Source of the DNA: a virus
Taxonomy: Duplodnaviria > Heunggongvirae > Uroviricota > Caudoviricetes
Virus record (IMG/VR): IMGVR_UViG_2521172733_000017
Length of the DNA stretch: 18,058 nucleotides
Reading direction: 5' to 3' (one strand)
The notes below the pieces were generated by a model. The model was not told the DNA's origin. It did no database searches and saw nothing but the letters and a program-made list of their open reading frames with translations. Positions within the stretch are counted from its first letter, which is position 1. Every line of letters begins with the position of its first letter. Position numbers and translations under genes: made by a program. This document shows positions 310-18,058 of this stretch, piece by piece.

Positions 310-320
310 GGGCAAATCCA
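1..320 (+). mobile_element. Right end of an IS2-like (IS3 family) insertion sequence, truncated by the window edge; terminus ...GGGGCAAATCCA at 309-320
   Basis: Terminal sequence matches the IS2 right inverted repeat as I recall it (reverse complement TGGATTTGCCCCTATATTTCCAGACATCTGTTATCACTTAACCC); contains the 3' end of an IS3-family transposase ORF. Confidence 0.7.
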
Positions 321-721: not shown

Positions 722-744
722 GGAAGAGCAGGAGAGCAAAACAG

Positions 745-2765: not shown

Positions 2766-2768
2766 ATC

Positions 2769-3665
2769 ATGCCTGCTGTTGATCTTTCCCAGTTACCGGA
2801 ACCCGCCATCATCGCGGAGCCTGATTTTGAGGCAATTCTGGCTGACACAAAGGCCATGATGATTGCGTCCTATCCTGCCGAACAGCGTGAAGCCGTCTCC
2901 GCCGCGCTGGAGCTGGAATCAGAACCCCTGAACGTTATCGCTCAAACCATGTCGTTTCGTGAAATGCTGTTACGCCAGCGGGTTAACGAGGGCGCACGCG
3001 CCTGCATGTTAAGCCACGGTTCAGGGACAAACCTGGACAACCTCGCGGGCAATATGAACACAAAGCGCCTGGTTATCACTCCGGCAACGGATACCACCGA
3101 CGCGGTGATGGAGAGCGACACCTCGCTGAGACTGCGGGCGCAGCGGGCGTATGACGGCCTGAGTGTTGCTGGCCCGTCAGGTGCATACGAGTATTTTGCA
3201 CGCAGCGCCAGCGGTCTGGTGCGTGATGCGCGGGCCATCAGCCCGTCTCCGGCCTGTGTGACGGTTTCCATTCTGTCCACTGAAGGCGACGGCACAGCAA
3301 CGGAGGCGTTGCTTAATACCGTTCGCGCCGTTCTGAATGCAGAGGATACCCGCCCGGTGGCCGACCGACTGACCGTACAGAGCGCCAGCATCGTGACATG
3401 GCGGCTGAATGCAAAACTGTACTTTTACCCCGGCCCGGAATCCGAACCTATTCTGGCTGCGGCTGAATCGTCGTTCAGGAAGTGGCTGGCTGAGCAGGGG
3501 CTTATTGGTCAGGACGTGGCGTTGTCAGCCATTGCTGCCGCACTTCATGTGCACGGCGTGCAACGCGTGGAGATAATCGAACCCACACAGAATATGGCCA
3601 TCAGCGACATACAGGCGGCGCGCTGTGAGTCATTCACCATCAGCGAAGGTGGGCGTAATGAGTAA
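2769..3665 (+). CDS. J: Baseplate assembly protein J
   Basis: 298 aa (P2 gpJ is about 300 aa); position after W; RBS-spaced ATG 3 bp after the W stop. Confidence 0.8.
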   Translation: MPAVDLSQLPEPAIIAEPDFEAILADTKAMMIASYPAEQREAVSAALELESEPLNVIAQTMSFREMLLRQRVNEGARACMLSHGSGTNLDNLAGNMNTKRLVITPATDTTDAVMESDTSLRLRAQRAYDGLSVAGPSGAYEYFARSASGLVRDARAISPSPACVTVSILSTEGDGTATEALLNTVRAVLNAEDTRPVADRLTVQSASIVTWRLNAKLYFYPGPESEPILAAAESSFRKWLAEQGLIGQDVALSAIAAALHVHGVQRVEIIEPTQNMAISDIQAARCESFTISEGGRNE

Positions 3666-4188
3666 TTCACTGTTACCGCCATCAGCCAGCAATTTCATGC
3701 GTTGCGCCGAAGCTGTCGGAGCGCGCATTACAGACATCCCGGTAGACCTCAACACGCTGTGGTCACCGGACACCTGCCCGGTGCATCTGCTGCCTTATCT
3801 CGCCTGGGCATTTTCCGTTGACCGCTGGGATCGCAACTGGCCGGAAGAGACAAAGCGACAGGTGATTCGTGATGCCTGGCTGATACACCGACACAAAGGG
3901 ACCATCAGCGCACTGCGCCGGGCCATTGAGCCGCTGGGATACCTCATTCGCGTGTCTGAGTGGTGGGAATTCGGCGGAGAACCGGGAACATTTACTGTTG
4001 AAGTCGGCACGCTGGACAGTGGCGTGACGGAGGAAATGTATCTGGAAATGGAGCGGTTGATTGCTGATGCCCGCCCGGTCAGCCGCCACATGACAGGGCT
4101 GAATATCATTCAGGAAATTCCGGGGGATATTTTCGCAGCGGCGGCAACTTATGACGGTGAAGTTATTACCATTTATCCAGGCGATTAA
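3658..4188 (+). CDS. I: Tail protein I (baseplate)
   Basis: ATG at 3658 overlaps the J stop (ATGAGTAA), giving 176 aa, the P2 gpI length; directly precedes the tail fibre gene. The track ORF starts at GTG 3625. Confidence 0.8.
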   Translation: MSNSLLPPSASNFMRCAEAVGARITDIPVDLNTLWSPDTCPVHLLPYLAWAFSVDRWDRNWPEETKRQVIRDAWLIHRHKGTISALRRAIEPLGYLIRVSEWWEFGGEPGTFTVEVGTLDSGVTEEMYLEMERLIADARPVSRHMTGLNIIQEIPGDIFAAAATYDGEVITIYPGD

Positions 4189-4190
4189 GC

Positions 4191-6077
4191 ATGAGTACCA
4201 CAACACGAAAATTTAAAACCGTTATCACCGATACGGGTGCAAAAAAATTAGCTCAGGCAGCCGCGCCAGATGGTAAGCCTGTCCGCCTGACTCATATGGC
4301 CGTGGGCGACGGTGGCGGCACGTTGCCCACACCAGACAGTAAGCAGACCCGTCTGGTGCATGAGGTGTGGCGACACACTGTTAATCGCGTCATCCTGGAC
4401 GCAACACATCAGAACCGCATTATTGCGGAGCTGGTTATTCCTCCTGAAACGGGCGGATTCTGGATCCGGGAAATTGGTGTATTTGATGAGCACGGCGATT
4501 TAATCGCGGCGGGCAATACTGCCGAAAGTTACAAGCCAGCCGTTGCCGAAGGGTCCGGTCGTGCACAAACATTTCGCACCATTCTGACCGTATCCAGCAC
4601 TGCCACCGTGGCGCTTACCGTGGATAACACCATGGTGATGGCCACAGTGGATTACGTGGATGACAAACTGAAAGAGCATGAACAGTCACGACGTCACCCG
4701 GACGCCTCGCTGACCGCAAAAGGCTTTGTTCAACTCAGTAGTGCCACCAACAGCACGTCTGAAACACTGGCCGCGACATCGAAAGCGGTTAAGGCGGTAA
4801 TGGATGAAACGAACAAGAAAGCCCCATTAAACAGCCCGGCACTGACCGGAACGCCAACAACGCCAACTGCGCGACAGGGAACGAATAATACCCAAATCGC
4901 AAGCACGGCTTTCGTTATGGCTGCGATTGCCGCCCTTGTAGATTCGTCACCTGACGCACTGAATACGCTGAACGAGTTAGCGGCGGCGCTGGGAAACGAC
5001 CCGAATTTTGCGACCACCATGACTAACGCGCTTGCGGGTAAGCAACCGAAAGATGCCACCCTGACGGCGCTGGCCGGGCTTGCTACTGCGGCAGACAAGT
5101 TTCCGTATTTTACGGGGAATGATGTCGCCAGCCTGGCAACCCTGACAAAAGTCGGGCGGGATATTCTTGCGAAATCGACCGTTGCTGCCGTTATCGAATA
5201 CCTCGGTTTACAGGAAATGGTAAACAGGGCTGGTAACGCCGTGCAAAAAAATGGCGATACTTTGTCCGGTGGGCTTACTTTTGAAAATGACTCAATCCTT
5301 GCCTGGATTCGAAATACTGACTGGGCGAAGATTGGATTTAAAAATGATGCCGATGGTGACACTGATTCATACATGTGGTTTGAAACAGGCGACAACGGCA
5401 ATGAATATTTCAAATGGAGAAGCAAACAAAGCACCACAACAAAAGACCTGATGACGCTGAAATGGGATGCGCTAAATATTCTTGTTAATGCCGTCATTAA
5501 TGGCAGCCTTGGAGTTGGTACGACGAATGCGTTAGGTGGTAGCTCTATTGTTCTTGGTGATAATGATACCGGATTTAAACAGAATGGAGACGGTATTCTT
5601 GATGTTTATGCTAATAGTCAGCGTGTATTCCGCTTTCAGAATGGAGTGGCTATTGCTTTTAAAAATATTCAGGCTGGGGATGGTAAAAAATTCACGCTAT
5701 CCAGCTCCAACAACTCCACGAAGAACGTAGGGTTTAATTTATGGGGCGCTTCATCAAGACCAACTGTTGCAGAGCTTGGTGATGATTCAGGCTGGCATTT
5801 CTATAGTCAGCGAAATACAGATAACTCGGTGATATTTGCTGTAAACGGTCAGATACAACCCAGCAACTGGGGGAATTTTGATTCACGCTATGTGAGAGAT
5901 GTCAGACTTGGCACGCGTGTTGTTCAAACTATGCAAAGAGGCGTGATGTATGAAAAATCAGGCCATGCAATTACGGGGCTTGGCATTGTCGGCGAAGTTG
6001 ATGGCGATGATCCGGCTGTGTTCAGACCAATACAAAAATACATCAATGGCACATGGTATAACGTTGCACAGGTATAA
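4191..6077 (+). CDS. H: Tail fibre protein H: constant N-terminal part plus currently expressed variable C-terminal part
   Basis: 628 aa; N-terminal region with IAELVIPPETGGFW and the repeated QLSSATNSTSETLAAT motif, and C-terminus YINGTWYNVAQV, resemble P2 gpH as recalled; the gix-like crossover site lies in-frame at 5191-5216. Confidence 0.9.
   Translation: MSTTTRKFKTVITDTGAKKLAQAAAPDGKPVRLTHMAVGDGGGTLPTPDSKQTRLVHEVWRHTVNRVILDATHQNRIIAELVIPPETGGFWIREIGVFDEHGDLIAAGNTAESYKPAVAEGSGRAQTFRTILTVSSTATVALTVDNTMVMATVDYVDDKLKEHEQSRRHPDASLTAKGFVQLSSATNSTSETLAATSKAVKAVMDETNKKAPLNSPALTGTPTTPTARQGTNNTQIASTAFVMAAIAALVDSSPDALNTLNELAAALGNDPNFATTMTNALAGKQPKDATLTALAGLATAADKFPYFTGNDVASLATLTKVGRDILAKSTVAAVIEYLGLQEMVNRAGNAVQKNGDTLSGGLTFENDSILAWIRNTDWAKIGFKNDADGDTDSYMWFETGDNGNEYFKWRSKQSTTTKDLMTLKWDALNILVNAVINGSLGVGTTNALGGSSIVLGDNDTGFKQNGDGILDVYANSQRVFRFQNGVAIAFKNIQAGDGKKFTLSSSNNSTKNVGFNLWGASSRPTVAELGDDSGWHFYSQRNTDNSVIFAVNGQIQPSNWGNFDSRYVRDVRLGTRVVQTMQRGVMYEKSGHAITGLGIVGEVDGDDPAVFRPIQKYINGTWYNVAQV
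5191..5216. repeat. gix/hix-like recombination site (left inverted repeat) TTATCGAATACCTCGGTTTACAGGAA inside H
   Basis: Matches 21 of 26 positions with the reverse complement of the site at 7869-7894; strongly resembles Mu gixL (TTATCCAAAACCTCGGTTTACAGGAA) as recalled. Confidence 0.8.
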
Positions 6078-6080
6078 ATC

Positions 6081-6608
6081 ATGCAGCATTTAAAAAACAT
6101 TACTGCTGGCAATCCTAAAACAAAAGAGCAATATCAGCTAACAAAGAATTTTGATGTTATCTGGTTGTGGTCAGAAGATGGGAAAAACTGGTACGAGGAA
6201 TTAAAGAACTTTCAGGAAGACACAATAAAAATTCTTTATGACGAGAATAATATTATTGTCGCCATCACCAAAGATGCCTCCACGCTTAACCCTGAAGGCT
6301 ATAGCGTCGTTGAAGTTCCTGATATTACAGCTAATCGCCGTGCCGATGATTCAGGTAAGTGGATGTTTAAGGACGGGGCTGTAGTTAAGCGGATTTATAC
6401 GGCAGACGAACAGCAACAACAGGCCAAATCACAAAAGGCCGCATTACTTTCCGAAGCTGAATCAGTTATCCAGCCACTGGAACGCGCTGTCAGGCTGAAC
6501 ATGGCGACGGATGAGGAGCGCGCACGACTGGAGTCATGGGAACGCTACAGCGTTCTGGTCAGCCGTGTGGATACAGCAAATCCCGAATGGCCACAAAAGC
6601 CTGAATAA
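6081..6608 (+). CDS. G: Tail fibre assembly chaperone (gpG / Mu U-like)
   Basis: 175 aa immediately after H; N-terminal 22 residues nearly identical to the oppositely oriented paralogue at 6637-7170, as expected for U/U' chaperone pairs. Confidence 0.85.
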
Positions 6609-6613
6609 AAATT

Positions 6614-6633
6614 AAGGCCCGATAGCGGGCCTT
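6614..6633. terminator. Bidirectional hairpin between the convergent G and G' genes (AAGGCCCG-ATAG-CGGGCCTT)
   Basis: Perfect 8-bp GC-rich stem with a tetraloop, located between the two convergent stop codons (6606-6608 and 6637-6639). Confidence 0.55.
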
Positions 6634-6636
6634 GTC

Positions 6637-7170
6637 TCATTCAGGTTGTTCGGGAAACGTTACTGGCAGGCTGGAAGTGTCTGTAGATTCGACTTTCTGC
6701 GCAAAGAGCATCCACTCTGTTAATTTTTGTTTATTCTCGTCGGAAATGATGCCCAGCCGTAGCTGTGAGTCCCATAGCTGGGTTTTATCCCTGACGAGCT
6801 GTAGCAGGCTTTGCTTTTCATTTTCCGCCTGCTGCCTCTGCTCTTCCTCGGTATAAGTTCGCTTTACCACTACGCCATCTTTGAACATCCATTTACCCGA
6901 AATGTCAGCACGGCGATTTGCTGTAATATCAGGTAATTCAACGACGCTTGCGCCTTCCGGATTAATTGCTGAAACATCCTTTTCAATACAAATAATAACG
7001 CCGTTATGGTCATAGACCATTTTCAAAGTGTCTGGCTGGAAATTCTTTTGTTCCTCATACCAGTTTTTTCCATCATCTGAATAAAGCCATTTGATGTTAA
7101 ATTGCTTTGTTAGCTGGTATTGCTCTTTTGTTTTAGGATTGCCAGCAGTAATGTTTTTTAAGTGCTGCAT
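6637..7170 (-). CDS. Alternative tail fibre assembly chaperone (G' / U'-like), expressed after inversion
   Basis: 177 aa; N-terminus [22 protein letters not shown] shared with G, remainder diverged; lies inside the invertible segment on the opposite strand. Confidence 0.8.
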   Translation of the reverse strand: MQHLKNITAGNPKTKEQYQLTKQFNIKWLYSDDGKNWYEEQKNFQPDTLKMVYDHNGVIICIEKDVSAINPEGASVVELPDITANRRADISGKWMFKDGVVVKRTYTEEEQRQQAENEKQSLLQLVRDKTQLWDSQLRLGIISDENKQKLTEWMLFAQKVESTDTSSLPVTFPEQPE

Positions 7171-7172
7171 AA

Positions 7173-7886
7173 TTAAATACTCCCCGCGTTATACCACGTC
7201 CCATTAATGCAATACTGAATTGGCCTTGCCTGAGTTGTATCAATTAATTCATCACGGTTTCTGTTAACTGAACCCGTAACGACATAACCTGACCTGTCAG
7301 ACCAGCCGGGACCATTCCATGTCTGAACAGATGACAGACCGCCAAGGCGAATACCTGTAATAAACCTTGAGTTACATTCTGCCTGCGTGTATGCACCAAC
7401 ATCTCCCGCAGAGGGTTTGCGGGTCGTGGTGTAAAACTCTGACCAGTCGGCTTCAAAACCATAACCATCACGGGCTGAACGATAAAAAATACCGCCATTT
7501 TTATAATTAATCCGAAACTGAGCTGCAGGACAACTTCCTTCTCCCATATAAAAATGAATAATTAACGTTGATGCACCACTAATAGTTGCGTTATAGGCTC
7601 CGCTACTCCAGTTCCATCCAACTGCTTTATCATTCGCAACGGTGCTTCCTGTTTTCCCTAAGGCAAACGCACCAACATGACTTGCTTTTAATGTGATATC
7701 GGAGGAACCATCAAAAGCCACATTGCTTATTTTCCTGGCAGTTTTTAATTTTGCAGCTGTAGAAGCATTGCCGGATAGTTCACCTGAAAGGCCACCGCTG
7801 AATGTTTGTCGATTAGTCCAGGTATTCGCTGTACTGAGTAACGGTATTTTCTCCCCGCTTGTGCCGAGTTCTCGTAAACCGAGGTT
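7173..7886 (-). CDS. Alternative tail fibre variable C-terminal segment (H' / Sv'-like); no start codon of its own, fused to the H constant region after inversion
   Basis: The - strand frame is open from 7886 to the stop at 7173 and passes through the gix core encoding L-G-L, as H does at gixL; an in-frame TAA lies in the outer half of gixR (7887-7889); C-terminus CINGTWYNAGSI parallels the H C-terminus. The track ORF starts at 7721. Confidence 0.75.
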   Translation of the reverse strand, partial: NLGLRELGTSGEKIPLLSTANTWTNRQTFSGGLSGELSGNASTAAKLKTARKISNVAFDGSSDITLKASHVGAFALGKTGSTVANDKAVGWNWSSGAYNATISGASTLIIHFYMGEGSCPAAQFRINYKNGGIFYRSARDGYGFEADWSEFYTTTRKPSAGDVGAYTQAECNSRFITGIRLGGLSSVQTWNGPGWSDRSGYVVTGSVNRNRDELIDTTQARPIQYCINGTWYNAGSI

Positions 7887-7894
7887 TTAGATAA
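7869..7894. repeat. gix/hix-like recombination site (right inverted repeat) TTCTCGTAAACCGAGGTTTTAGATAA
   Basis: Inverted copy of the 5191-5216 site; resembles Mu gixR (TTCCTGTAAACCGAGGTTTTGGATAATGG) including the trailing ATGG; lies 55 bp upstream of the invertase start. Confidence 0.8.
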
Positions 7895-7948
7895 TGGCCG
7901 TTTCTGACCTGCATGGCATGATTTACGCTTTTGGACGGGAGATTCAGC

Positions 7949-8536
7949 GTGCTGATTGGCTATGTAAGGGTATCAACAAATGACCAGAATACAGACCTGC
8001 AACGAAACGCTCTTGTTTGTGCAGGATGTGAACAAATATTTGAAGATAAATTAAGCGGGACAAAGACAGACCGACCGGGATTAAAACGCGCTTTAAAGCG
8101 CCTTCAAAAAGGTGACACGCTGGTTGTCTGGAAACTGGATCGCCTCGGGCGAAGCATGAAACATCTGATTTCTCTCGTCGGGGAACTACGGGAGCGAGGG
8201 ATTAATTTTCGCAGTCTGACCGACAGCATAGATACATCTTCTCCAATGGGGCGTTTTTTCTTCCACGTGATGGGTGCCCTGGCTGAAATGGAACGTGAAT
8301 TAATTGTTGAACGTACACTGGCCGGACTGGCGGCAGCGCGTGCACGGGGGCGCACAGGCGGACGTCGACCGAAGCTGACAAAAGAACAGCATGAGCAAAT
8401 AGCAAGGCTGATCAAAAACGGGCACGACAGAAAACAACTGGCAATAATTTACGGCATTGGTATATCGACGATTTATCGTTACCACCCCGCAGGAGAATCA
8501 AGCGGAACAATAGAGAAGAGTCAGGAAACAAAATAA
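7949..8536 (+). CDS. Serine-recombinase DNA invertase (Gin/Pin/Cin/Hin family)
   Basis: From GTG 7949 the product begins MLIGYVRVSTNDQNTDLQRNAL... with the catalytic-serine motif YVRVSTNDQ and VVWKLDRLGRS, close to Mu Gin and e14 Pin as recalled; C-terminal helix-turn-helix region. The track's TTG start at 7931 adds 6 unlikely residues. Confidence 0.9.
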   Translation: MLIGYVRVSTNDQNTDLQRNALVCAGCEQIFEDKLSGTKTDRPGLKRALKRLQKGDTLVVWKLDRLGRSMKHLISLVGELRERGINFRSLTDSIDTSSPMGRFFFHVMGALAEMERELIVERTLAGLAAARARGRTGGRRPKLTKEQHEQIARLIKNGHDRKQLAIIYGIGISTIYRYHPAGESSGTIEKSQETK

Positions 8537-8565
8537 CCGCTAATCTGACCATTAGCGGTTTTTGT
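8536..8565. terminator. Bidirectional rho-independent terminator between the invertase and convergent gpU (ACCGCTAAT-CTGACC-ATTAGCGGT followed by TTTTT)
   Basis: 9-bp perfect stem followed by a T-run on the + strand and by TTATTTT on the - strand; sits in the 35-bp gap between the two convergent stop codons. Confidence 0.6.
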
Positions 8566-8571
8566 GTTAAA

Positions 8572-9066
8572 TCAGAACAGCCCTTTAACTGAACTGGCCG
8601 CGCTGTTAAGAGATGATGTCACCTTATCTTTGAAGCCGGACAGCATATCGCTGAACGATGAGGATTGCAGGCGCTCCCGCAAATCCTCATCACAGCGTTC
8701 AAGGGTCAGTGAAAATTCTATCTTTTTCGCCTTACCGTAGCGATCAAACTCGGAACGGGTCGTATTCGTTTCAGTCAGCACATACATGCCGTAAATCTGC
8801 CCGACACCATCAATCAGAGGCCAGGGGCGTCCTGTATATGCCTGCGTGGTCAGCAACGAAAGCGACACTTCGCCACCTGTAATTTCAGGATAAAGCACGC
8901 CAGAAAGCACAATGCGATCATCACCTGCACCGATATACTGCCAGCTTGCTGAGCGGTTAACGCGTTCATTTTTCACATGCCGCCAGCTTTTGTTTTGCTG
9001 TAACTGCTGATGCGGCAATGTGCGCAGCTCAAAAACAAACATGCCGTAGATCATCATCATGGCCAT
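8572..9066 (-). CDS. U: Tail protein U (P2 gpU family)
   Basis: 164 aa (P2 gpU is about 159 aa); immediately downstream of the tape measure gene on the same strand with GGAG upstream; position matches P2 T-U order. Confidence 0.75.
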   Translation of the reverse strand: MAMMMIYGMFVFELRTLPHQQLQQNKSWRHVKNERVNRSASWQYIGAGDDRIVLSGVLYPEITGGEVSLSLLTTQAYTGRPWPLIDGVGQIYGMYVLTETNTTRSEFDRYGKAKKIEFSLTLERCDEDLRERLQSSSFSDMLSGFKDKVTSSLNSAASSVKGLF

Positions 9067-9072
9067 GACTCC

Positions 9073-11916
9073 TCAATCTTTATCGTAAAAACTGCCACGT
9101 CCGGCACGGGCGCGCCGTTCCATCTCTGCCCTGACCATTTCACCGACCAGTTTCGCCAGTTCGCGGGGGTTCTGCGTAACAACGTTATGCAGATGGACAT
9201 GAATTTCACCACCAAATCCGGAGGCAACAGGCTCCCGGTTACGGGAAGTTACAGGAACTGATGCCACTGGCGATCGTATGGCCTCCGCCACCGGGCGGGA
9301 GCTGGCCGCAACAACAGGGACCAGCGCCGGAGGCAGCGGAGCCGGGACCACGGGTGTGATATTAATTGCGGGGGCAGGCTTACTGACCTGCGCAATCTTC
9401 CGCTCCTGCCACTCCCCACGAACAGCAAGTGCGCGGGGCAGGTTCTTAAAGACAATATCGCCGGGGCCAATGCGTTTTTTCGTCTCATCAACCAGCTTAC
9501 CTGTGTTATCAGCAATTTTGCTGAGTCTGCGTAGCGTCCCGGTATTGCTGTCTGTGAGCGGTTTGTTGTCTTTGGGTTTATCACCTCCGGTGCCATTGCC
9601 ATTTTCCACAGGCTTCGGCGGATTGATTTTCGCCAGGTCCCCCTGAAGCAAGGCAACCTTGTCCTGAAGAATGGCCGCACGCTGTGCGTCTTCGATTTTC
9701 TTGCGCGCCCTTTCCGCTTCATCCGGAAGGACGCCAAGTTTTTCAAGTATCCACGCCAGCGTATCCAGCAGCATTTTTGCAGGTGTCAGAACAAGTTGTA
9801 ACGCACCGCCAAGAACGTTACCGAATATCTCGCCAGCACTGGTACATTTATCCAGCGTTTCCTTGCTGGACTCCATCGGTGACAGCAGCGATTTAAACCA
9901 GTTAAACACCTGGCTGATCCCGCTTCCGATTGCGTCAAAAACAGGACCAAACCGTTCAAAGGTTTCGCGCAACGGGGTCAGCCTTTCCATAATTCCGCTG
10001 AACACCCCGACAAAAAATGCCCTGATGGGATCCCAATGTTTCCAGATAAGAATGGCAGCTCCGGCAAGCGCAGCCACGATAAGACCAACCGGACTGAACA
10101 GCGCCCCGATAGCACCTCCCAGCAAAGAAACGGAACCCGTCACCATTCCCCATAGTGCTGGCAGGAGCCTGACAGCATTCATTGATCCGATCAGGAGGGA
10201 AAAACCAAGACGCAGTTTTGCCAGCGGGCCAGCAAGCACACCAAGAGCAAGCGACAATGAGCCTACGGTTGCAGTCACTGCCAGCAGCGCACCGCCTGCA
10301 ATCAGTAGCTGGCGCGTCAGTACAGGATGGGCCTGCGCCAGTACCGTCACCTTTGAGACCACCCGTGTTAGCCACTGCGTGACAGAACGCAGCGGACCGT
10401 CAACCAGATCACTGATGCGAATACGAAGACCTTCCCATGCGCTGTCGAGATTTTTCAGGTCGCCATCAAGGTTGTCGGCCATAACCTTTGCCGTGCGTTC
10501 AGCCTCACCGCGTGCGCCCTCAAGTTCTTTTCTCAGTTTGGGTAAGGAACCGTCACCCGCCGCATCAACGAGTGCCATAAACGATGTGAAAGCCTCTTCC
10601 CCGGCGATGTCCTTAAAGAAGGATACCCGGTCAACTTCCCCGTATTTGCGGGTAGCTTTATAAAGGTCAGCCAGCAGATCTTCCATCGGGCGCATTTTGC
10701 CCCCGGCATCCGAGACGGACACGCCCAGCTCTTTCAGAGCTTCTGCCGCCGCCTTTGGCGGTGATGCCAGACGAGCCAGGCTGGCACGCATTGCCGTCCC
10801 GGCATCACTCCCTCTGATGCCCATATTCGCCAGCACGCCCGCCATCGCTGCGGCCTGCTCCAGCGATATTCCCAGCTTACCCGCCACCGGACCTGCATAT
10901 TTCATGGTTTCGCCCAGTGCGCGAAGGTCAGTGTTGGTACGGGTAAACGCTGCGGTGAGTGTGTCACCGACCCGGTCCATCTGGTCAGCAGAAAGGCCGA
11001 ACTGCGTCAGGATATTTGAGCCAATATCTGCCGTCTCGCCGAGATCCATACCGCCAGCCGTTGCCATGCTCAGCACGCCGGGAAGCGCAGCCTGAATGGC
11101 CTGCGGAGTGAAGCCAGCCATTGCAAGAAATGCCTGTCCACTGGCGGCATCGCCTGCGGTGAACTGCGTTTCAGAGCCCAGTTTTAACGCCTGCTCACGC
11201 AGCGCCTTAAACTGCGGGCTGTTCTGGTCGATTCGCGTCAGTGCCTGAACGCGGGACATCTCTTTGCCGAACCCGATCGCAGGCTGCAAAAAACGCCCGG
11301 CAGCATAGCCGCCCGCCGCTGCCGCACCAATTGCCAGTGCACCACCTGTTTTCAGTTTTCCCGCTGTTTCCTGCGCGCGCGAATACCGCTCACGCGCCCG
11401 CGTTACACGCGCAAGCGCCTGCCGTTCGCGTTCAAGCTGGTTGTTGTACTGTTCGGTGCGTCTGATGGCCTGCTGGATGGTGTTATCGCTGCCTGTCAGG
11501 GAAATGCCGTGGCGTTTCAGCTCTCCGCCAAGCTCCCGCATTTTCTGAATTTCCCGTGTGCGCGATTCATTCAGGCGTTCAAGCCGGGTGCTTAACTGCT
11601 GCATCAGCTTTTGTTGTTTTTCGCTGAGCACTGTACCCGTGCGTTGTAACTGATTAAGGGCGTTAAGCTGGCGTCGTGCTTTCACGATACCCGCATCCGC
11701 TTTACTGACAGCGTCGCGGGCGCGCTCAAATGAACGCGCCTGACGCTCGAGATTTTTGATCGCCCCCTGCGTTCGCTGGATGGAGTCACCAAACTGCCCC
11801 ATCAGGCGGCGGGCGTTTTCGGCAGGCCGGGTCAGCCTGTCAACGGCGCTGAAAGCGACCCGGATGTCAAGAGTCTTCATTATCTGCATTCCCGCTGCGA
11901 AGTGCCGCCCGCTCAC
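9073..11916 (-). CDS. T: Tail tape measure protein (gpT)
   Basis: 947 aa; coiled-coil-rich N-terminal region, central hydrophobic and Gly/Ala-rich segment, located after E/E' and before U. Confidence 0.85.
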   Translation of the reverse strand: MSGRHFAAGMQIMKTLDIRVAFSAVDRLTRPAENARRLMGQFGDSIQRTQGAIKNLERQARSFERARDAVSKADAGIVKARRQLNALNQLQRTGTVLSEKQQKLMQQLSTRLERLNESRTREIQKMRELGGELKRHGISLTGSDNTIQQAIRRTEQYNNQLERERQALARVTRARERYSRAQETAGKLKTGGALAIGAAAAGGYAAGRFLQPAIGFGKEMSRVQALTRIDQNSPQFKALREQALKLGSETQFTAGDAASGQAFLAMAGFTPQAIQAALPGVLSMATAGGMDLGETADIGSNILTQFGLSADQMDRVGDTLTAAFTRTNTDLRALGETMKYAGPVAGKLGISLEQAAAMAGVLANMGIRGSDAGTAMRASLARLASPPKAAAEALKELGVSVSDAGGKMRPMEDLLADLYKATRKYGEVDRVSFFKDIAGEEAFTSFMALVDAAGDGSLPKLRKELEGARGEAERTAKVMADNLDGDLKNLDSAWEGLRIRISDLVDGPLRSVTQWLTRVVSKVTVLAQAHPVLTRQLLIAGGALLAVTATVGSLSLALGVLAGPLAKLRLGFSLLIGSMNAVRLLPALWGMVTGSVSLLGGAIGALFSPVGLIVAALAGAAILIWKHWDPIRAFFVGVFSGIMERLTPLRETFERFGPVFDAIGSGISQVFNWFKSLLSPMESSKETLDKCTSAGEIFGNVLGGALQLVLTPAKMLLDTLAWILEKLGVLPDEAERARKKIEDAQRAAILQDKVALLQGDLAKINPPKPVENGNGTGGDKPKDNKPLTDSNTGTLRRLSKIADNTGKLVDETKKRIGPGDIVFKNLPRALAVRGEWQERKIAQVSKPAPAINITPVVPAPLPPALVPVVAASSRPVAEAIRSPVASVPVTSRNREPVASGFGGEIHVHLHNVVTQNPRELAKLVGEMVRAEMERRARAGRGSFYDKD

Positions 11917-12396
11917 GCCAGCTAACCACTTCGCCGGGCGTCATCATGAAGATTTCGGCGGGCGACCAGTTAAAAATGGCGGCAATATCCGCCACCAGAT
12001 CTTCGATGTGCTCAAAGCACACAACCGTGATCAGGCTTCCGTCGCCTGTTCGTTCTTCCCGCCAGAGTCCGCACCGCTCAAAAAATTTACGGCAACCACA
12101 CATAACTGAATAAAGTCACGGGATGCCATTTTTTTGATCGTCACTTCATCCAGTCGCGGTGATGTCACGCGTGACAGCAGCGTAAACATGGATTCCGCTT
12201 TCAGATTCAGCACATCAGACAGCGACAAATCTCGCAGAGATCCAGCCTGCTCAATAGCTCCGGTGATCTCCACATACGTGATTTTTTCGCCGCCTCGCTC
12301 AATTGGTTGGGTAAGTTTTACGCCACGCTCACTGGTTTCTTTCACAGTGTCAGCAACGACCGTGTTTTCGTTATCGATGTTTTTCGTCTCTTTCAT
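11867..12396 (-). CDS. Tail assembly chaperone E+E' made by programmed -1 ribosomal frameshift at T TTT TTG (+ strand 12079-12085)
   Basis: The -1 frame ORF (11867-12103) overlaps the 3' end of E and the start of T; the slippery heptamer is the one P2 uses for E/E', as I recall; arrangement is conserved in tailed phages. Confidence 0.7.
12031..12396 (-). CDS. E: Tail assembly chaperone E (zero-frame product)
   Basis: 121 aa between the tube gene FII and T; AAGGAG RBS 7 nt upstream of the ATG; contains the T TTT TTG slippery heptamer near its 3' end. Confidence 0.8.
   Translation of the reverse strand: MKETKNIDNENTVVADTVKETSERGVKLTQPIERGGEKITYVEITGAIEQAGSLRDLSLSDVLNLKAESMFTLLSRVTSPRLDEVTIKKMASRDFIQLCVVAVNFLSGADSGGKNEQATEA
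12079..12085 (-). promoter_or_regulatory. Programmed -1 frameshift slippery heptamer T TTT TTG (read on the - strand)
   Basis: Heptamer is in the correct phase (aaT TTT TTG = N F L in the E frame); the -1 frame continues ...VNFFERCGLW... into E'. Confidence 0.65.
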
Positions 12397-12450
12397 CAGG
12401 AAACTCCTTTCAGTCAGAGGCGACGCACTGCGCCGCCTGCATATTACTTA

Positions 12451-12963
12451 TCAGCCAAGCCCGAGCGCGGAACGGATGCGATCGGGCACAATGTCCTTGC
12501 CGTCCTTCCGGTAAATGAAGTTCAGCAGGTCAATCTCCCACAACGGGCGATCGTTAACACTCAGCTTGTAGTAGGTGTTTTTAATGGCGTAAGTGTGTGA
12601 TGTGGCTTCGCCCTGTTTGGCTTCCCCCATATCAATTTCCGTCACACGTCCGCGCATTTCGACTTCATACAGATCGCTTTCTGCATCGGTGTAGTATTCA
12701 CCCGCAAAACGCAGCAGCGTGCCGTCAATCGTGCCGCCATACTTAAGGAACAGCTCACGAACTGCCCCCCCCATGACAAAGCTCGCATCAAGCGCGGAGT
12801 CGTCCAGACCGAGATCAATACTTACCGCCCCCATCATGCCGCCCCCCCGGTAGCTGTCGGTTTTGCGCGTCAGCTTAGGCAGAGTGACGGACGTCACCTT
12901 ACCCACTTCGTTTTCACCATCCACAAACAGCGTAAAAAAGCGAAGATGTTTTGGCACAGCCAT
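12451..12963 (-). CDS. FII: Tail tube protein FII
   Basis: 170 aa; motifs SVTLPKLTRK and DLGLDDSAL match P2 gpFII as recalled; start overlaps the FI stop (ATGA). Confidence 0.9.
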   Translation of the reverse strand: MAVPKHLRFFTLFVDGENEVGKVTSVTLPKLTRKTDSYRGGGMMGAVSIDLGLDDSALDASFVMGGAVRELFLKYGGTIDGTLLRFAGEYYTDAESDLYEVEMRGRVTEIDMGEAKQGEATSHTYAIKNTYYKLSVNDRPLWEIDLLNFIYRKDGKDIVPDRIRSALGLG

Positions 12964-14147
12964 CAGGCACCTCCCAGCACCGCAAATGCGGGTTCAAAGT
13001 ATTCATCAGTAAACGTCTGGTAAAGCTCCATGTCTTCCAGTGGCGGAACGGGCGTATATTTGTAGCGAATACGCACACGCCCCTGACGTAAATCCGTGGT
13101 GCTGTTATCCACCACGTCATACCAGCACTCCGCGCCAATCAGTTTCCCGGCAGTAACCAGTGAATCCAGTTTTGCCCTGATGGCACTGATAACATCCTTC
13201 ACGTTCGCAGGTGTCAGTGGACTGTCGATGGTTTCAAACTGCGCTTCCGCAATTGAATCAGCCAGCACCTGTGCGGTTCGGGTATACACCTCAAAGATGT
13301 AGGCGTTCGTTTCCGGTGTGCGGTTGCCCCAGAAGCGGAACCCGTTGCGACGAATAATGGTCGTGATTTCTTTGTTGTTGAGGCTGTTGGCATCACTGTC
13401 TTCGGCCTGTAACGACCAGAACACATGCCTCGACATCCCCAGCACATTTTTAACCGGAACGTTGGACAGTGATTTGTGCCATCCCTGCTCATGGTCAATG
13501 TACGCACGAAGACCGCACGCATAGGCAGGCGCGGGGAACGTTTCGTTTTTGCCACTTTTCGGGTTGTAGGCGATGAAGTCCGGCCATAAGAGCATCACCT
13601 CACGTTCGTTGAATTTCTGGCGGTAGGTAATCGCCTCAGCCATCGTGTTACAGCCGTGACATGTGGCATACACAAACGCGCGCAGTTTACCCGCAATCAC
13701 GCACAGGGATTTTGTTACCGCCTCCGTGTCCAGCTCCGGCGCGGCCAGAATACGCGGACGGTATCCGATGCTTTCATCCTGCTCTGCAACAAGCAGCGCA
13801 TACATCCCCGTATAGCTGCCGTCAGATTCAGAACCACCGATAACCAGTTGATCCTGCGTTTTTCCGTCTTCTTCTTTGTGTTCAGCCACGCGAACGACGA
13901 TCACCTTTGTGCTCACCTGGTCTGCGATGGCCTTAAGCGCACGATAAAGCGTCCCCGTTGTTCCGCATTTTCCCAGCACGTCATTGACGCGGGTCAGCAG
14001 TGTGGGCTTGTTCAGCGGGAACAGCTCCGCGTCCGCATCATCCGCCGTTGCCACGATACCGATAACACTGGAATCAACATCATTAATCGCTGTTACCAGG
14101 TCGGTACTTTCCGTAACACGGGCACCATGAAAACGAGTTTCACTCAT
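12963..14147 (-). CDS. FI: Contractile tail sheath protein FI
   Basis: 394 aa; extensive motif-level match to P2 gpFI as recalled (DADAELFPLNKP, PRILAAPELDT, GKLRAF, WPDF, HEQGWHKSLSNV, IRRNGFRFWGNRT, YTRTAQVLAD, YKYTPVPPLE). Confidence 0.9.
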   Translation of the reverse strand: MSETRFHGARVTESTDLVTAINDVDSSVIGIVATADDADAELFPLNKPTLLTRVNDVLGKCGTTGTLYRALKAIADQVSTKVIVVRVAEHKEEDGKTQDQLVIGGSESDGSYTGMYALLVAEQDESIGYRPRILAAPELDTEAVTKSLCVIAGKLRAFVYATCHGCNTMAEAITYRQKFNEREVMLLWPDFIAYNPKSGKNETFPAPAYACGLRAYIDHEQGWHKSLSNVPVKNVLGMSRHVFWSLQAEDSDANSLNNKEITTIIRRNGFRFWGNRTPETNAYIFEVYTRTAQVLADSIAEAQFETIDSPLTPANVKDVISAIRAKLDSLVTAGKLIGAECWYDVVDNSTTDLRQGRVRIRYKYTPVPPLEDMELYQTFTDEYFEPAFAVLGGA

Positions 14148-14304
14148 AGCTCCAGCCCCTTGTATCCGTTAAATGATTCAGCAACAATCATCACCCACCA
14201 CGCGCGTAATCTCACCCCTGCGCCGTTCTCCCGCCACGGCGACAACAAAAAGCAGTAACCCCTTCCGCACGCACATGCGACCATGCCGCACAGGGAGGGA
14301 ACAG

Positions 14305-15413
14305 ATGACCGACACCACCATGCAATTGCTCAGCCAGGGCACTTACCCCGTGAAAATGCCGGATTTTGATATTCTCGCCGAGGGTAAAACGCTGTCCGGC
14401 GTGGCAGACCGCCTGATGAACCTGTCACTGACCGACAACCGGGGATTTGAGGCGGACCAGCTCACCATCACGCTGGATGATGCGGATGGTCAGTTGCAGC
14501 TACCGCCACGGGGCGCGCGCCTGACGGTTCTCATTGGCTGGAAAGGAGAACCGCTGACAGAAAAAGGCACTTACATTGTTGATGAAATCGCTCACGAAGG
14601 ACCGCCGGACAGGCTGACTGTTTCAGCCAGAAGCGCAGATTTTCGGGATGAATTTAACGTTAAACGTGAGGTGTCCTGGCATGATGTGACCGTTGAGCGC
14701 GTGGTATCTGCCATCGCTCATCGGTACGGTCTGAAACCGCAAATCAGCGAAATGCTGATGGATATCGAAATCGACCACGCCGACCAGACCGAAGAAAGCG
14801 ATATGTCCTTCCTTACGCGCATGGCGGAAATGCTGGGCGCAATCACCACGGTAAAAAGCGGCAATCTGTTATTCATCATGCCAGGTGGTGGCGTGAACGC
14901 ACAGGGCCAGCCGTTGCCCTCGTTCGCCATTACACGCAGCAGCGGCGATCGCCATCAGTTCCGTATTGCTGACCGCGAGGCGTATACGGGGGTACGCGCC
15001 TACTGGCTTGATCTTAATTACGGGAAAAAGAAAAAGTCAGCGTGAAACGCCGTAAACCACCAAAACCCAAAAAGGAGAAAAGCAGCAGCCGTGAAGGTGA
15101 TTATATGGAAGGCGCGGAAGGCAATGTGTTTGTGTTACGCAAGACTTATCAGAACGAGCAGGCAGCAAGACGCGCAGCGGCGGCAAAGTGGCAGCAGCTA
15201 CAACGCGGAGCCGCATCATTCTCCATCACGCTGGCATGTGGTCGTGCAGAACTCTACCCCGAAATGCATGGCACGGTAACAGGATTTAAAAGCGAGATTG
15301 ATAATCAGGACTGGATTATTGCAAAAGCCGAGCACACCATCGATAACAGCGGCTTTACCACGCAGCTTGAGCTTGAGGCAAAAATCTCGGAATGGATAGC
15401 AGAAACAGAGTGA
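14305..15413 (+). pseudogene. D: Tail protein D (P2 gpD, late control D family) split by a frameshift in an A-rich tract (segments 14305-15045 and 15042-15413)
   Basis: N-terminal segment carries LSLTDNRGFEADQL and SWHD motifs of gpD; the C-terminal part continues in the -1 frame (...GAASFSITLACGRAELYPE..., SGFTT) after the Lys-rich linker; frame break at gggaaaaagaaaaag (15022-15036); RBS GGGAGGG before ATG 14305. Confidence 0.75.
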
Positions 15414-15455
15414 GCAACTTAGAATAGCAGCAGCACCACGTTAAGGGAGGTCGCT

Positions 15456-15716
15456 ATGTTCCGTTGTCCGCTTTGTGGCGCATCTGCCCGTATCCGCACC
15501 AGTCGTCCTGAAAATGATTCAAACACCGTGCGGCAAAAGTATTACCAGTGTAACAACCTGGAATGCGGCGTATGCTTCTCAACACTGGAAGCTTTCCATA
15601 AATTCACATCAAAACACGCCTCCGGCGTTCACTCTTCAGAAGGTATCCCGTGGCATGAGCTGCCAGCTTCACACAGGGGAAACAATCAGATGAGTTTGCC
15701 TTTACCTCAGAATTAA
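15456..15716 (+). CDS. ogr: Ogr/Delta-family zinc-finger late-gene transcription activator
   Basis: 86 aa; MFRCPLCGASARIRTSR...YYQCNNLECGVCF carries the Cys-x2-Cys...Cys-x4-Cys finger and resembles P2 Ogr; AAGGGAGG RBS; positioned after D at the prophage right end as in P2. Confidence 0.85.
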   Translation: MFRCPLCGASARIRTSRPENDSNTVRQKYYQCNNLECGVCFSTLEAFHKFTSKHASGVHSSEGIPWHELPASHRGNNQMSLPLPQN

Positions 15717-15725
15717 CAGGCAGAA

Positions 15726-15754
15726 TTGCCGGAGTAACAAAAAAGCGATAGATT
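15726..15754 (+). promoter_or_regulatory. Candidate sigma70 promoter (TTGCCG, 17-bp spacer, TAGATT) for the hok-like transcript
   Basis: Good -35/-10 hexamers with 17-bp spacing about 150 nt upstream of the hok-like ORF; predicted transcript to the terminator at about 16168 would be roughly 400 nt, typical of hok mRNAs. Confidence 0.4.
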
Positions 15755-15907
15755 ACGCGCGGGTGCCTTTCGGCTGATGGTCGGAGGGAATACCCGAAGG
15801 CCAGATGTGGAAAGGCCCCGGAAAACATTTCTGTTTAACCGAGGCCCTAACATATCTACCTTAAGCAAGTGATAGGTTAGCGCCTCTCCAACAAAGGAGC
15901 AAGCGCT

Positions 15908-16048
15908 ATGTCGCAAAAATCGCTTACGGCCATCACGTTCTGCGTGACGGTAATCCTCATCATCTGGATGCTACACGGTTCGCTGTGTGAAATACGGATG
16001 AGCTTCTGGGGAGCGGAGTTTGCGGCGTTCTTACAGTGTAAGCAGTAA
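15908..16048 (+). CDS. Hok/Gef-family type I toxin-antitoxin toxin (small membrane peptide), HokA-like
   Basis: 46-aa ORF below the track's size cutoff: MSQKSLTAITFCVTVILIIWMLHGSLCEIRMSFWGAEFAAFLQCKQ; hydrophobic transmembrane helix followed by the SLCEIR...E-AAFL-C motif of Hok-family toxins (compare HokA ...DSLCELHIKQESYELAAFLACKLKE as recalled); AGGAG RBS 8 nt upstream. Confidence 0.65.
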   Translation: MSQKSLTAITFCVTVILIIWMLHGSLCEIRMSFWGAEFAAFLQCKQ

Positions 16049-16136
16049 GGAAACCGCGACGGGGGAGCAATCCCCCGTCAATCGGTTGCTAAGGTTGGCT
16101 GAAGTGGCACCCTATCTCACAGACATGAACAACAAA

Positions 16137-16168
16137 CCCGCAGCGTAAGAACTGCGGGTTTTCTTTTT
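16137..16168 (+). terminator. Rho-independent terminator (CCCGCAG-loop-CTGCGGG then TTTTCTTTTT) ending the hok-like transcript
   Basis: 7-bp GC-rich stem, 8-nt loop and T-rich tail on the + strand; an additional perfect 9-bp hairpin (GACGGGGGA-GCAA-TCCCCCGTC) lies at 16058-16079. Confidence 0.6.
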
Positions 16169-16251
16169 GGAACTATCACTAGCTAGTGTACCGTTAACGG
16201 CACATAATGCTCGCACAACAAACCTGTTAAAAGAGATTACTCAGCATTCTC

Positions 16252-16518
16252 CTACTTCCATTGCCGGATCATTTCATCGGTAACATCACCCTCATAACAT
16301 ACCACGTCATACCCTCCATTACGGCTATATGCACTGCGTCCACCACATCTACTACCATTCCTTGCATGATTATAAGGACACGCACAATTGCCTGGATAAG
16401 ATTCAATGGATTCTTTAATTATTTCTTTTTTGATCTGAGCATCAGACTTTCCTGTTGCTGCATATCCGCTAAAAGATACTAAACAAAGGCAGATTGCCAT
16501 TAATAAACCACATCGCAT
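16252..16518 (-). CDS. Small secreted Cys-containing protein of unknown function (orphan gene in an AT-rich islet)
   Basis: Starting at the internal ATG (16516-16518) gives 88 aa with a signal-peptide-like N-terminus MRCGLLMAICLCLVSFSGYAATG and a mature part with 4 Cys (CACPY...RCGGRSAYSRNGGYDVVCYEG); the track's 38-residue upstream extension is unlikely to be translated. Confidence 0.5.
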   Translation of the reverse strand: MRCGLLMAICLCLVSFSGYAATGKSDAQIKKEIIKESIESYPGNCACPYNHARNGSRCGGRSAYSRNGGYDVVCYEGDVTDEMIRQWK

Positions 16519-16736
16519 ACCGATACACTCTATTACTAACCAATCATAGTCCACATCATAAAATCGAGATGAGGAGTACAATACCTTTAACAAGAAGGTG
16601 TCATAACGATAATATGTCGTGCAATTCATCAAAAAAAAGATCTATATCAAAGAGATAGAACTCTTATCAGTGCTTCAGACATCGGCATTCGAGGCAGCAG
16701 AAAAACAGTAAATCTGACGAATTTGCCTTTTCCCAA

Positions 16737-16904
16737 GATGTTGTCAGATTAAAAAGATAGATTAGCGCAGGTACCTGTTGGTGGATTGCAGGAGGAAAAA
16801 TGAAGTCGAGTGGAAAAATCCCAGAAAAATTTTTGTTTAACAGAGGTCCTGGTTCACTATGCGAAATACGGAGGAGCTGCAGAAGAATTCTGCTTCATCC
16901 TTAG
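16737..16904 (+). pseudogene. Decayed paralogous copy of the hok-like locus (promoter-like region, leader and fused 34-codon ORF retaining ...GSLCEIR...)
   Basis: Segments homologous to 15726-15760, 15805-15850 and 15977-16005 of the intact locus are present in the same order but with an internal deletion of about 120-130 bp that removes the Hok transmembrane region; a GGAGG RBS precedes ATG 16800. Confidence 0.5.
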
Positions 16905-16985
16905 AGTTTAAACAGCACGTGCACTACCATTGTTTCTGCATATCGCCACACCATCGCCACTCAACCGCCATTGCACAAAATACAA

Positions 16986-17013
16986 ATACAAAAAAACCAC
17001 CCGAAGGTGGTTT
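16986..17013 (-). terminator. Rho-independent terminator downstream of tRNA-Leu (stem CCACC/GGTGG, then a T-run on the - strand)
   Basis: On the - strand: GAAACCACCTTCGGGTGGTTTTTTTGTATTT, a hairpin followed by 7-8 T residues, about 45 nt 3' of the tRNA-Leu end. Confidence 0.7.
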
Positions 17014-17056
17014 CACGACACTGCTTATTGCTTTGATTTTATTCTTATCTTTCCCA

Positions 17057-17143
17057 TGGTACCCGGAGCGGGACTTGAACCCGCACAGCGCGAACGCCGA
17101 GGGATTTTAAATCCCTTGTGTCTACCGATTCCACCATCCGGGC
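17057..17143 (-). tRNA. leuZ: tRNA-Leu (anticodon UAA), 87 nt with long variable arm
   Basis: Reverse complement matches E. coli leuZ as recalled (GCCCGGATGGTGGAATCGGTAGACACAAGGGATTTAAAATCCC...GGGTTCAAGTCCCGCTCCGGGTACCA); encoded CCA end. Confidence 0.9.
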
Positions 17144-17155
17144 TCGGGAAGAAAG

Positions 17156-17229
17156 TGGAGGCGCGTTCCGGAGTCGAACCGGACTAGACGGATTTGCAAT
17201 CCGCTACATAACCGCTTTGTTAACGCGCC
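17156..17229 (-). tRNA. cysT: tRNA-Cys (anticodon GCA), 74 nt
   Basis: Reverse complement reads GGCGCGTTAACAAAGCGGTTATGTAGCGGATTGCAAATCCGTCTAGTCCGGTTCGACTCCGGAACGCGCCTCCA; anticodon loop TTGCAAA; encoded CCA. Confidence 0.9.
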
Positions 17230-17282
17230 AAATTCTTCAGGCCTTTCAGCCAGACATCCGCTGACGCCGATGTCTTTTAAAC

Positions 17283-17358
<76 letters not shown>

Positions 17359-17509
17359 ATTCATCAAGCAATCAGTTAATCACTTGATTTTATTATCGTC
17401 TGGCAATCAGTGCCGCCGTTCGATGCGTTGCATTCTACTTACCTGGCGCGATGAGTCAACGATATTTTTCACCACTTTTGATTGTTTGCTGAAAATTACG
17501 CCGAAACGA

Positions 17510-18058
17510 TCACTGTTCAAGCAAATCTGCACGCGCAGCGCTCAAATATTGCAACATTGACCACAGAGTCAGTACCGCAGCCACAAAGAAAAGTGCAATA
17601 CCGGCGTACTCAACCCAAATGTTCGGACGCCACAGCAGCCAGGCCAACGCCACCATCTGGGCAGTGGTTTTCACTTTCCCAATCCAGGAGACAGCCACGC
17701 TACTGCGTTTACCCAACTCCGCCATCCATTCGCGTAGCGCAGAAATAATAATTTCACGGGCGATCATCGTTGCCGCCGGTAAGGTCACCCACCAGCTGTG
17801 ATAATGCTCGGTTACCAGCACCATGGCGATAGCCACGAGAACTTTATCTGCGACAGGGTCAAGGAAAGCACCAAACCGGGTACTCTGGTTCCAGCGGCGT
17901 GCCAGAAAACCATCGAACCAGTCAGTCACCGCCGCGACGCAGAAAATGAGCGCGGCGGCAAACGGCGACCAGGTGACAGGCAGATAAAAGACCAATACAA
18001 AGAATGGGATAAGGATGACACGGAACAGTGTAAGCAACGTAGGGATATTAAATTGCAT
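17510..18058 (-). CDS. pgsA: CDP-diacylglycerol--glycerol-3-phosphate 3-phosphatidyltransferase (phosphatidylglycerophosphate synthase)
   Basis: 182-aa ORF essentially identical to E. coli PgsA as recalled ([27 protein letters not shown]...), including the CDP-alcohol phosphotransferase motif DGFLARR...G...DPVADK; start codon is the last three bases of the window. Confidence 0.95.

Follow-up and report, generated by a model that had tools for sequence, protein, structure and literature searches.

The 18,058-nt stretch of DNA analysed here, IMG/VR virus record IMGVR_UViG_2521172733_000017 and hereafter called the window, carries, by gene content and sequence similarity, the end with the late genes of a P2-like prophage of P88 type (genus Xuanwuvirus), beside tRNA-Leu and pgsA. 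Our subject is its tail-gene block FI-FII-E/E'-T-U, which lies inverted relative to phage P2, together with the short gap that separates FI from the baseplate gene D and the late activator gene ogr.

The tail block and its neighbours

Gene layout was established from a listing of open reading frames (ORFs), Pfam and tblastn with P2 proteins, every gene having clear Pfam and P2 matches. The P2 proteins FI, FII, E, T, U, D and Ogr all have counterparts here at 32–55% identity, and Pfam domains matched each of them, E only via its E' frame. The block and its immediate surroundings read as follows.

8535–8560, both strands: predicted two-way intrinsic terminator between the invertase gene and U (10-bp stem, T-runs on both strands)
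8572–9066, minus strand: gpU tail protein, last gene of the leftward operon (Phage_P2_GpU, 5.5e-39; 46% identical to P2 U)
9073–11916, minus strand: gpT tape measure (PhageMin_Tail, 7e-58; 32–40% to P2 T; the RefSeq start corresponds to window position 11880)
12031–12396, minus strand: gpE, with the E' extension frame at 11867–12103 (E/E' together 11867–12396; Phage_P2_GpE in the E' frame; 32% to P2 E)
12451–12963, minus strand: gpFII tail tube (Phage_tube, 7.5e-47; 42% to P2 FII)
12963–14147, minus strand: gpFI tail sheath, first gene of the leftward operon (three Pfam sheath domains; 46% to P2 FI)
14148–14304: FI/D gap, 157 bp
14305–15413, plus strand: gpD, baseplate hub ('late control D'), in two ORFs here (Phage_GPD in both halves; 55% to P2 D)
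15456–15716, plus strand: late activator of the Ogr/Delta zinc-finger type, 43 nt beyond D (Ogr_Delta, 5e-14; 42% to P2 Ogr)

In P2 the same genes follow one another on one strand as G-(pF)-FI-FII-E-T-U-D-ogr, D following U immediately and closing the structural genes of the F operon. The window departs from this: the part corresponding to pF through U is inverted, so that FI to U lie on the minus strand, and D and ogr form a separate rightward unit on the plus strand. The collinear order characterises the synteny of P2 and many relatives, but membership of the Peduoviridae does not depend on it. A preliminary description made from the sequence had placed FI-FII-E/E'-T-U at 8572–14147 on the minus strand, convergent with an invertase gene and divergent from D-ogr across a 157-bp gap, and ORFs, Pfam and tblastn confirm both the layout and the gap. 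Its assignment of D and ogr to the plus strand also stands; D is not one ORF here, however, a run of five A splitting it into two.

Within E, a slippery heptamer TTTTTTG lies at 12079–12085 (minus strand), and the frame carrying the GpE domain overlaps it. P2 has the same feature, its E/E+E' –1 frameshift site being marked in the P2 annotation, and a corresponding frameshift is predicted here.

Distribution, age and origin of the inverted order

Two readings of the inverted block stood in the preliminary description: an about 5.6-kb inversion, for which the invertase might be responsible through secondary sites, or a native but unusual operon architecture. Among phage records, 13 were collinear with the window over at least 80% of positions 7500–15500 at 94–97% identity. 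All are Xuanwuvirus or close to it, their annotated strands are the same as in the window, and they include P88, P884B11, 520873, 500465-2, 503458, PhiR44_2, Chuche and Citrobacter phiSM. Compared with the whole 18-kb window, P88 matched at 96.9% over 7874–16168 and 787–4795, in keeping with the genus Xuanwuvirus, and it is collinear with the window also across 787–5492. The P88 group has the same 157-bp FI/D gap, the same dyad within it (see below) and the same invertase/terminator/U junction, PhiR44_2 and Chuche being comparable from ~8522 rightwards; the window differs from this group in its frameshifted D, in variable parts of H and the tail fibre and in the cargo upstream of R. Two of these phages are functional: P88 is mitomycin C-inducible and plaques on strain DE048, with a burst size of ~65 (PMC5285337), and phiSM, which is spontaneously released, also plaques and can lysogenise K-12 strains (PMC6456863). 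That both share exactly this arrangement, with conserved promoter elements, supports a native architecture, and its presence in functional relatives speaks against a rearrangement, the outcome that the preliminary description had named as one that would make the order lineage-typical.

Nor is the architecture unusual. When a 751-nt probe spanning the FI/D junction was searched in 5426 complete E. coli genomes, the junction was intact and collinear in 1358 of them (about a quarter), and 1360 of the 1379 records matching the probe were collinear; at least 80% of the whole window was present in 210 genomes. Across species, we classified by tblastn 80 loci with a D alignment, fetched by D-protein alignment with one genome per species. 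Wherever D was at least 61% identical to P88 D, the locus was inverted (48 of 48, reading U, T, FII and FI on the minus strand, then D and ogr on the plus strand). These 48 loci come from more than 20 enterobacterial genera, including Salmonella, Serratia, Edwardsiella, Erwinia, Pantoea, Enterobacter, Kosakonia, Klebsiella, Citrobacter, Pectobacterium, Brenneria, Symbiopectobacterium, Providencia, Morganella, Xenorhabdus, Photorhabdus, Hafnia and Yersinia. The other 32 loci, with D at most 54% identical, were of P2 type: in all 30 of them in which U was found, it immediately preceded D and shared its strand. Salmonella phage SEN5 (Senquatrovirus; D 62.5% identical to P88 D) likewise carries the inverted F unit divergent from D; it has no invertase, its G faces U directly, and its intergenic DNA has diverged except for the dyad and the hexamers described below. 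The prophage-derived Klebsiella phages Kp48xx, compared by their D proteins (70–71% identical to P88 D), fall into the identity class that was always inverted. One locus from an assembly labelled Vagococcus sp. (NZ_JBQPOM010000071) carried the tail block with a D 99% identical to P88 D; its Gram-positive label most likely reflects contamination or a mislabelled assembly.

As three outgroups (Pseudomonas phage Dobby, Ralstonia phage RsoM1USA, Vibrio phage VP58.5) also show the collinear order, it is most likely ancestral, and sequence comparison makes the inversion most likely one old event in an enterobacterial subclade. Two points count against so simple a history: the claim of a single ancient inversion rests on classes of D identity and not on a rooted tree, and the relatives share ancestry, so that the counts are not independent events. 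Even so, the order is almost certainly typical of its lineage, ancient and not the work of the invertase.

The invertase remains the obvious suspect, as its gene directly adjoins one breakpoint. It belongs to a tail-fibre module to the left of the block.

R, S, V, W, J, I, then H at 4191–6077 and G at 6081–6608, plus strand (ORFs, Pfam, tblastn)
5191–5216: gixL, left crossover site inside H (inverted repeat; 28.1 bits with the gix matrix below)
6637–7170, minus strand: G' (ORFs, Pfam, tblastn)
7173–7721, minus strand: alternative H C-terminus (ORFs, Pfam, tblastn)
7869–7894: gixR, right crossover site, shortly before the invertase gene (inverted repeat; 30.5 bits)
7949–8536, plus strand: Gin/Hin-type serine DNA invertase, in an ORF open from TTG 7931 (Resolvase, 1.5e-50, and HTH_7)

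The stretch treated in the preliminary description begins at 7931, but TTG 7931 is only the first possible start codon of the invertase ORF; the likeliest start of the gene is GTG 7949 (MLIGYVRVS..., as in the RefSeq annotation of E. coli strain 15A). The invertase region is ~92–96% identical in nucleotide sequence to the gin region of Mu and D108, and a Mu 'G-segment boundary' annotation underlies a 92%-identical match that starts ~5 bp to the right of gixR. The segment 5191–7894, which combines H/G with the alternative G'/H' ends, is bounded by a 26-bp gix site on each side and has an invertase gene downstream, is a standard example of the switches known as the Mu G segment with gin, the P1 C segment with cin, and Salmonella hin. 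The invertase is part of a horizontally acquired tail-fibre cassette, invertible and Mu-like, located at the same module boundary. The gix pair flanks only this 2.7-kb segment; unlike the DNA of those switches, the 5.6-kb FI–U block has no gix bounds and lies outside the switch.

Could the invertase nonetheless have turned the block over? On this account a Gin-type enzyme, in this strain or its near ancestors, inverted ~5.6 kb by recombining pseudo-gix sites in 8536–8572 and 14148–14304. It would explain an order inverted relative to P2, and Gin-family enzymes occasionally use degenerate sites. Scanning with a position weight matrix (PWM) built from the window's four gix half-sites, however, found no gix-like site at either end of the block: the best scores were 2.2 and 4.4 bits, against 28–30 at the true sites, and such scores are reached in ~30% of windows of the same size, that is, at background level. 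The preliminary failure to see gix-like sequence at the breakpoints by eye is thereby upheld for degenerate sites as well. The invertase lies next to U in only 5 of the 48 inverted loci and is missing there from the other 43 and from SEN5; conversely, two collinear P2-type loci (L054 and L072) have an invertase next to FI. In PhiR44_2 and Chuche only the window from ~8522 rightwards is matched, which takes in no more than the final bases of the invertase gene; the tail-fibre DNA to its left has no match. Also difficult for this account are the identical junction in all those complete E. coli genomes, the recurrence of the order across so many genera, and the conserved, mirror-symmetric promoter architecture at the junction, which is not expected from a recent accident. 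We consider a recent invertase-made inversion extremely improbable.

A block misoriented between repeats during assembly deserves equally little credence. The source assembly does differ in homopolymer lengths from a near-identical genome, and the closest genome has tandem duplications around this prophage. Yet no long inverted repeats flank the block, and independent complete genomes as well as genomes from phage particles show the same junctions. In a search for inverted repeats over 4000–14500, no pair bracketed FI–U. One pair (I4; 8261–8286 and 14330–14355, 26 nt, 81%) was judged a chance match, because it is not gix-like and lies off the gene boundaries, inside the coding sequences of the invertase and D.

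At the left end of the block, the bidirectional terminator first placed at 8536–8565 corresponds to the predicted hairpin at 8535–8560, which has a T-run on either strand. Most relatives also carry a hairpin immediately past the stop codon of U (–16 kcal/mol by RNAfold), its sequence differing from lineage to lineage.

We found no explicit published description of the inversion, which goes unmentioned in the P88 (PMC5285337) and phiSM (PMC6456863) papers and in a 2026 paper on P2-like diversity; the arrangement is already visible in deposited phage genomes classified by the International Committee on Taxonomy of Viruses. Departure from P2 synteny at this locus is no sign of rearrangement, degradation or off-target invertase activity. 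The inverted order is the reference order of Xuanwuvirus, Senquatrovirus and related prophages, including those of ST131 and O157:H7 strains, and annotators and prophage-intactness tools that use the P2 order as a template should not penalise it.

A predicted two-way promoter in the FI/D gap

The preliminary description had reasoned that a native inverted order needs a late promoter for FI and a separate one for D, and had proposed a search of the gap for an Ogr-binding dyad. A strict search for TGT-N12-ACA gave four hits in the window, no more than expected by chance, and none in the FI/D gap. The gap was therefore compared with the P/O gap of this prophage type, where the same motif was found, and with the annotated P2 sites. 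This comparison yielded a dyad that the strict search had missed because it is one base off the consensus. The elements predicted in the gap are the following.

14187–14192, minus strand: predicted FI –10 hexamer GATGAT (hexamer positions A2, A5 and T6 are invariant columns in 21 diverged relatives)
14225–14246, centre 14235.5: predicted Ogr/Delta-type dyad GTTCT-N12-ACAAC, reading TGT-N12-AGA on the minus strand (identified by motif conservation)
14279–14284, plus strand: predicted D-ogr –10 hexamer GACCAT, mirror of the FI one (NANNAT at the mirrored distance)

The gap lacks the expected dyad in its strict form and holds a candidate in a wider one. In the same register, the wider pattern recovers the annotated activator sites of P2 pF (at 9 of 10 positions), pP/pO and pV, and three of four P2 promoters also deviate from strict TGT-N12-ACA. 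Across the 21 diverged, inverted-order relatives of alignment A2, the half-site bases T.T and ACA are invariant, with C in at least 90%, and the 12-nt spacer varies freely. The window encodes an Ogr homologue at a distance of 1.2 kb.

The position of the dyad relative to FI is alike in both arrangements. In the inverted clade it lies 78–88 nt from the FI ATG. Most collinear relatives have it 79–86 nt upstream of FI, and P2, where ogr likewise lies downstream of D, has it ~82 nt before the FI ATG. This indicates that dyad and promoter moved with the FI block. As U and D are only 0–9 nt apart in most collinear loci, the second breakpoint falls at the U/D boundary.

To locate –10 elements we scanned for NANNAT at offsets of 25–70 nt from the dyad centre in the 21 inverted-order relatives and in 17 collinear P2-type loci. 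On the FI side, NANNAT occurred 43.5–48.5 nt from the centre in 20 of the 21 inverted relatives, the same spacing as in P2. At that distance on the D side it occurred in 14 of 21 (NANNNT in 18 of 21), and at any other offset in at most 3 of 21. In the collinear loci, by comparison, NANNAT was present on the FI side in 16 of 17 and on the far side in 2 of 17. The D-side hexamer is therefore specific to the inverted clade.

Transcription starts in P2 follow a simple geometry. Placing the start 55.5 nt to either side of the dyad centre matches the annotated P2 late starts within ~1–2 nt: pP (3016) and pO (3127) are obtained exactly from one site, pF is placed at 17625 (annotated 17626–17628) and pV at 10307 (annotated 10308). 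By the same rule we infer starts in the window near 14180 (minus strand) for FI–U and near 14291 (plus strand) for D-ogr. The predicted D start would lie 14 nt before the D ATG, just ahead of a GGGAGGG ribosome-binding site. One site serving two promoters has precedent in P2 pP/pO, where a single dyad sits midway between divergent late genes with starts mapped at ±55.5 nt, and in Stenotrophomonas phage Smp131, for which a single TGT-N12-ACA site is described as serving PP' and PO' (PMC3931495). The promoter design in the window would then be a variant of the pP/pO node, with –10-like hexamers 43.5–48.5 nt away on both sides. The P2 node controls packaging and head genes; here the two arms would control the sheath on one side and the baseplate hub and activator on the other.

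We lean towards Ogr binding this dyad, with one bound activator serving both FI and D. Several observations weigh against it. The promoter model is built on sequence conservation and geometry; the strict consensus search was blind to the dyad, which carries one mismatch; and the wider pattern was derived partly from this phage before it recovered the P2 sites. The dyad is weaker or doubled in some members from Xenorhabdus and Photorhabdus, the D-side hexamer GACCAT of the P88 group is weak, NANNAT is missing from the mirror position in 7 of the 21 relatives, and read-through or a different promoter could account for the expression of D.

These doubts bear on one alternative in particular, that the inverted order is native but the dyad serves FI only, D-ogr being expressed from an independent promoter, by read-through or through antisense transcription. 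Besides the weak hexamer and its incomplete conservation, it can draw on the distance from dyad to D start codon, which varies by lineage (gaps of 122–198 bp), and on P2 ogr, which has its own sigma-70 promoter in the P2 annotation. A sigma-70 consensus scan, however, returned no site in 14148–14304, and across the window it found fewer than in shuffled sequence; this null fits activator-dependent promoters with a poor –35 and is uninformative on its own. The enrichment of the mirror hexamer only in the inverted clade and the double use of the P2 pP/pO site also argue against a dyad devoted to FI, as does a conserved block, CGCGCGCG-TGAAATCAT, that keeps a fixed distance from the dyad and not from the D ATG. 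We judge this alternative unlikely, though well within the range worth considering. The FI promoter expected from the preliminary reasoning is thus predicted, and a fully separate system for D is probably not needed; the dyad appears to be shared.

The conserved block on the D side consists of alternating CGCGCGCG and is strongly conserved 33–40 nt from the dyad centre (A2 columns ~140–150; CGCACGCAC at window positions 14268–14276). It lies just upstream of the predicted D –10, and P2 pF has CCGGCGC at the same position. It could be late-promoter spacer DNA or a second protein site.

The explanation we consider likely as a whole combines an ancient inversion of the F unit with a dyad shared in both directions and an uninvolved invertase. 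The F transcription unit, comprising its Ogr-dependent promoter, FI, FII, E/E', T and U, would have inverted once, in the ancestor of an enterobacterial subclade of the Peduoviridae that presumably was collinear, and become fixed. One breakpoint would have lain upstream of the pF activator site and the other at the U/D boundary. The inverted operon would run leftward as far as its own terminator, opposite the end of the tail-fibre module, and the symmetric Ogr-binding dyad would now abut D. With a second –10 at the mirror distance, the same activator site would drive D-ogr rightward, in the manner of P2 pP/pO. The Mu-like invertase cassette would have been acquired separately and played no part. 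The promoter step is held with more reserve: that the palindromic pF Ogr site was co-opted in both directions after the inversion, through a new mirror –10, so that both units are switched on together, seems to us the favoured option by a modest degree. If true, ogr would gain a direct positive-feedback loop ~1 kb long in place of the 6-kb read-through of P2, and the locus would show how symmetric activator sites make operon inversions survivable. The finding is otherwise ordinary, because the order already stands in deposited genomes and the promoter design would be a variant of pP/pO; its wider interest would be that of a bidirectional Ogr-dependent promoter as a compact example of symmetric site reuse after inversion.

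A few further sequences touch these elements. A perfect match to the dyad pattern, GTTGTAACGCACCGCCAAGAAC, lies at 9795–9816 inside T and is probably due to chance, the pattern giving ~1.6 one-mismatch hits per window. The sequence GATTACGCGCG occurs both in the FI promoter region (14200–14210, minus strand) and in the leader of a hok gene (15750–15760). The Ogr protein of the window has the Cys spacing CX2CX24CX4C in 86 aa, compared with a quoted CX2CX22CX4C in 72 aa for P2 Ogr, and its ORF is unannotated in the P88 record although the P88 DNA matches.

Condition of this copy and flanking sequence

The chromosome of E. coli O111:H21 strain 15A (NZ_CP077477) matches window positions 320–18058 with one mismatch and two 1-nt gaps. 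D is split by the 5-A run at 15031–15035 into ORFs 14305–15045 and 15042–15413. Strain 15A has six A at this run, and the D genes of 15A, P88 and phiSM are unbroken (366–369 aa). A programmed frameshift in D was rejected, because all three encode D in a single frame. The break is either a real pseudogene, which would make the prophage defective, or a homopolymer sequencing error. H shows the converse: the window has five G at 5869–5873 and an intact H of 628 aa, and 15A has four G and an H marked as frameshifted by RefSeq, so that the window does not come from the 15A assembly. Each homopolymer difference, in D and in H, could reflect either a sequencing error or a true inactivating mutation.

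The right end of the prophage is marked by ACCACCCGAAGGTG at 16996–17009, which resembles an att core and differs by one mismatch from the published 14-bp P88 attP core. It belongs to a terminator-like hairpin (16993–17014) just before tRNA-Leu (17057–17143); tRNA-Leu, tRNA-Cys, tRNA-Gly and pgsA lie beside it. An Rfam search of the window at gathering thresholds returned nothing beyond these three host tRNAs. In strain 15A, D'-ogr-hok-tRNA-Leu/Cys/Gly-pgsA is present on both sides of the prophage (1–3250 and 30294–33739 of the fetched locus), and the genome holds the FI/D junction three times, with a truncated replication gene beside one copy. This suggests tandem, partly deleted prophage copies.

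At the other end, positions 1–787 hold variable cargo between the lysis genes and R: P88 and phiSM match the window only from 787, bases 1–319 are unmatched in 15A, and 284–721 is the end of a DUF6645-domain gene in 15A. The segment is probably a moron or defence hotspot. Downstream of ogr lies a gene for a Hok/Gef-family toxin (15908–16048) with its leader region at 15740–15900, and a second, degenerate copy of the hok leader follows ~1 kb further on, at ~16745–16800.

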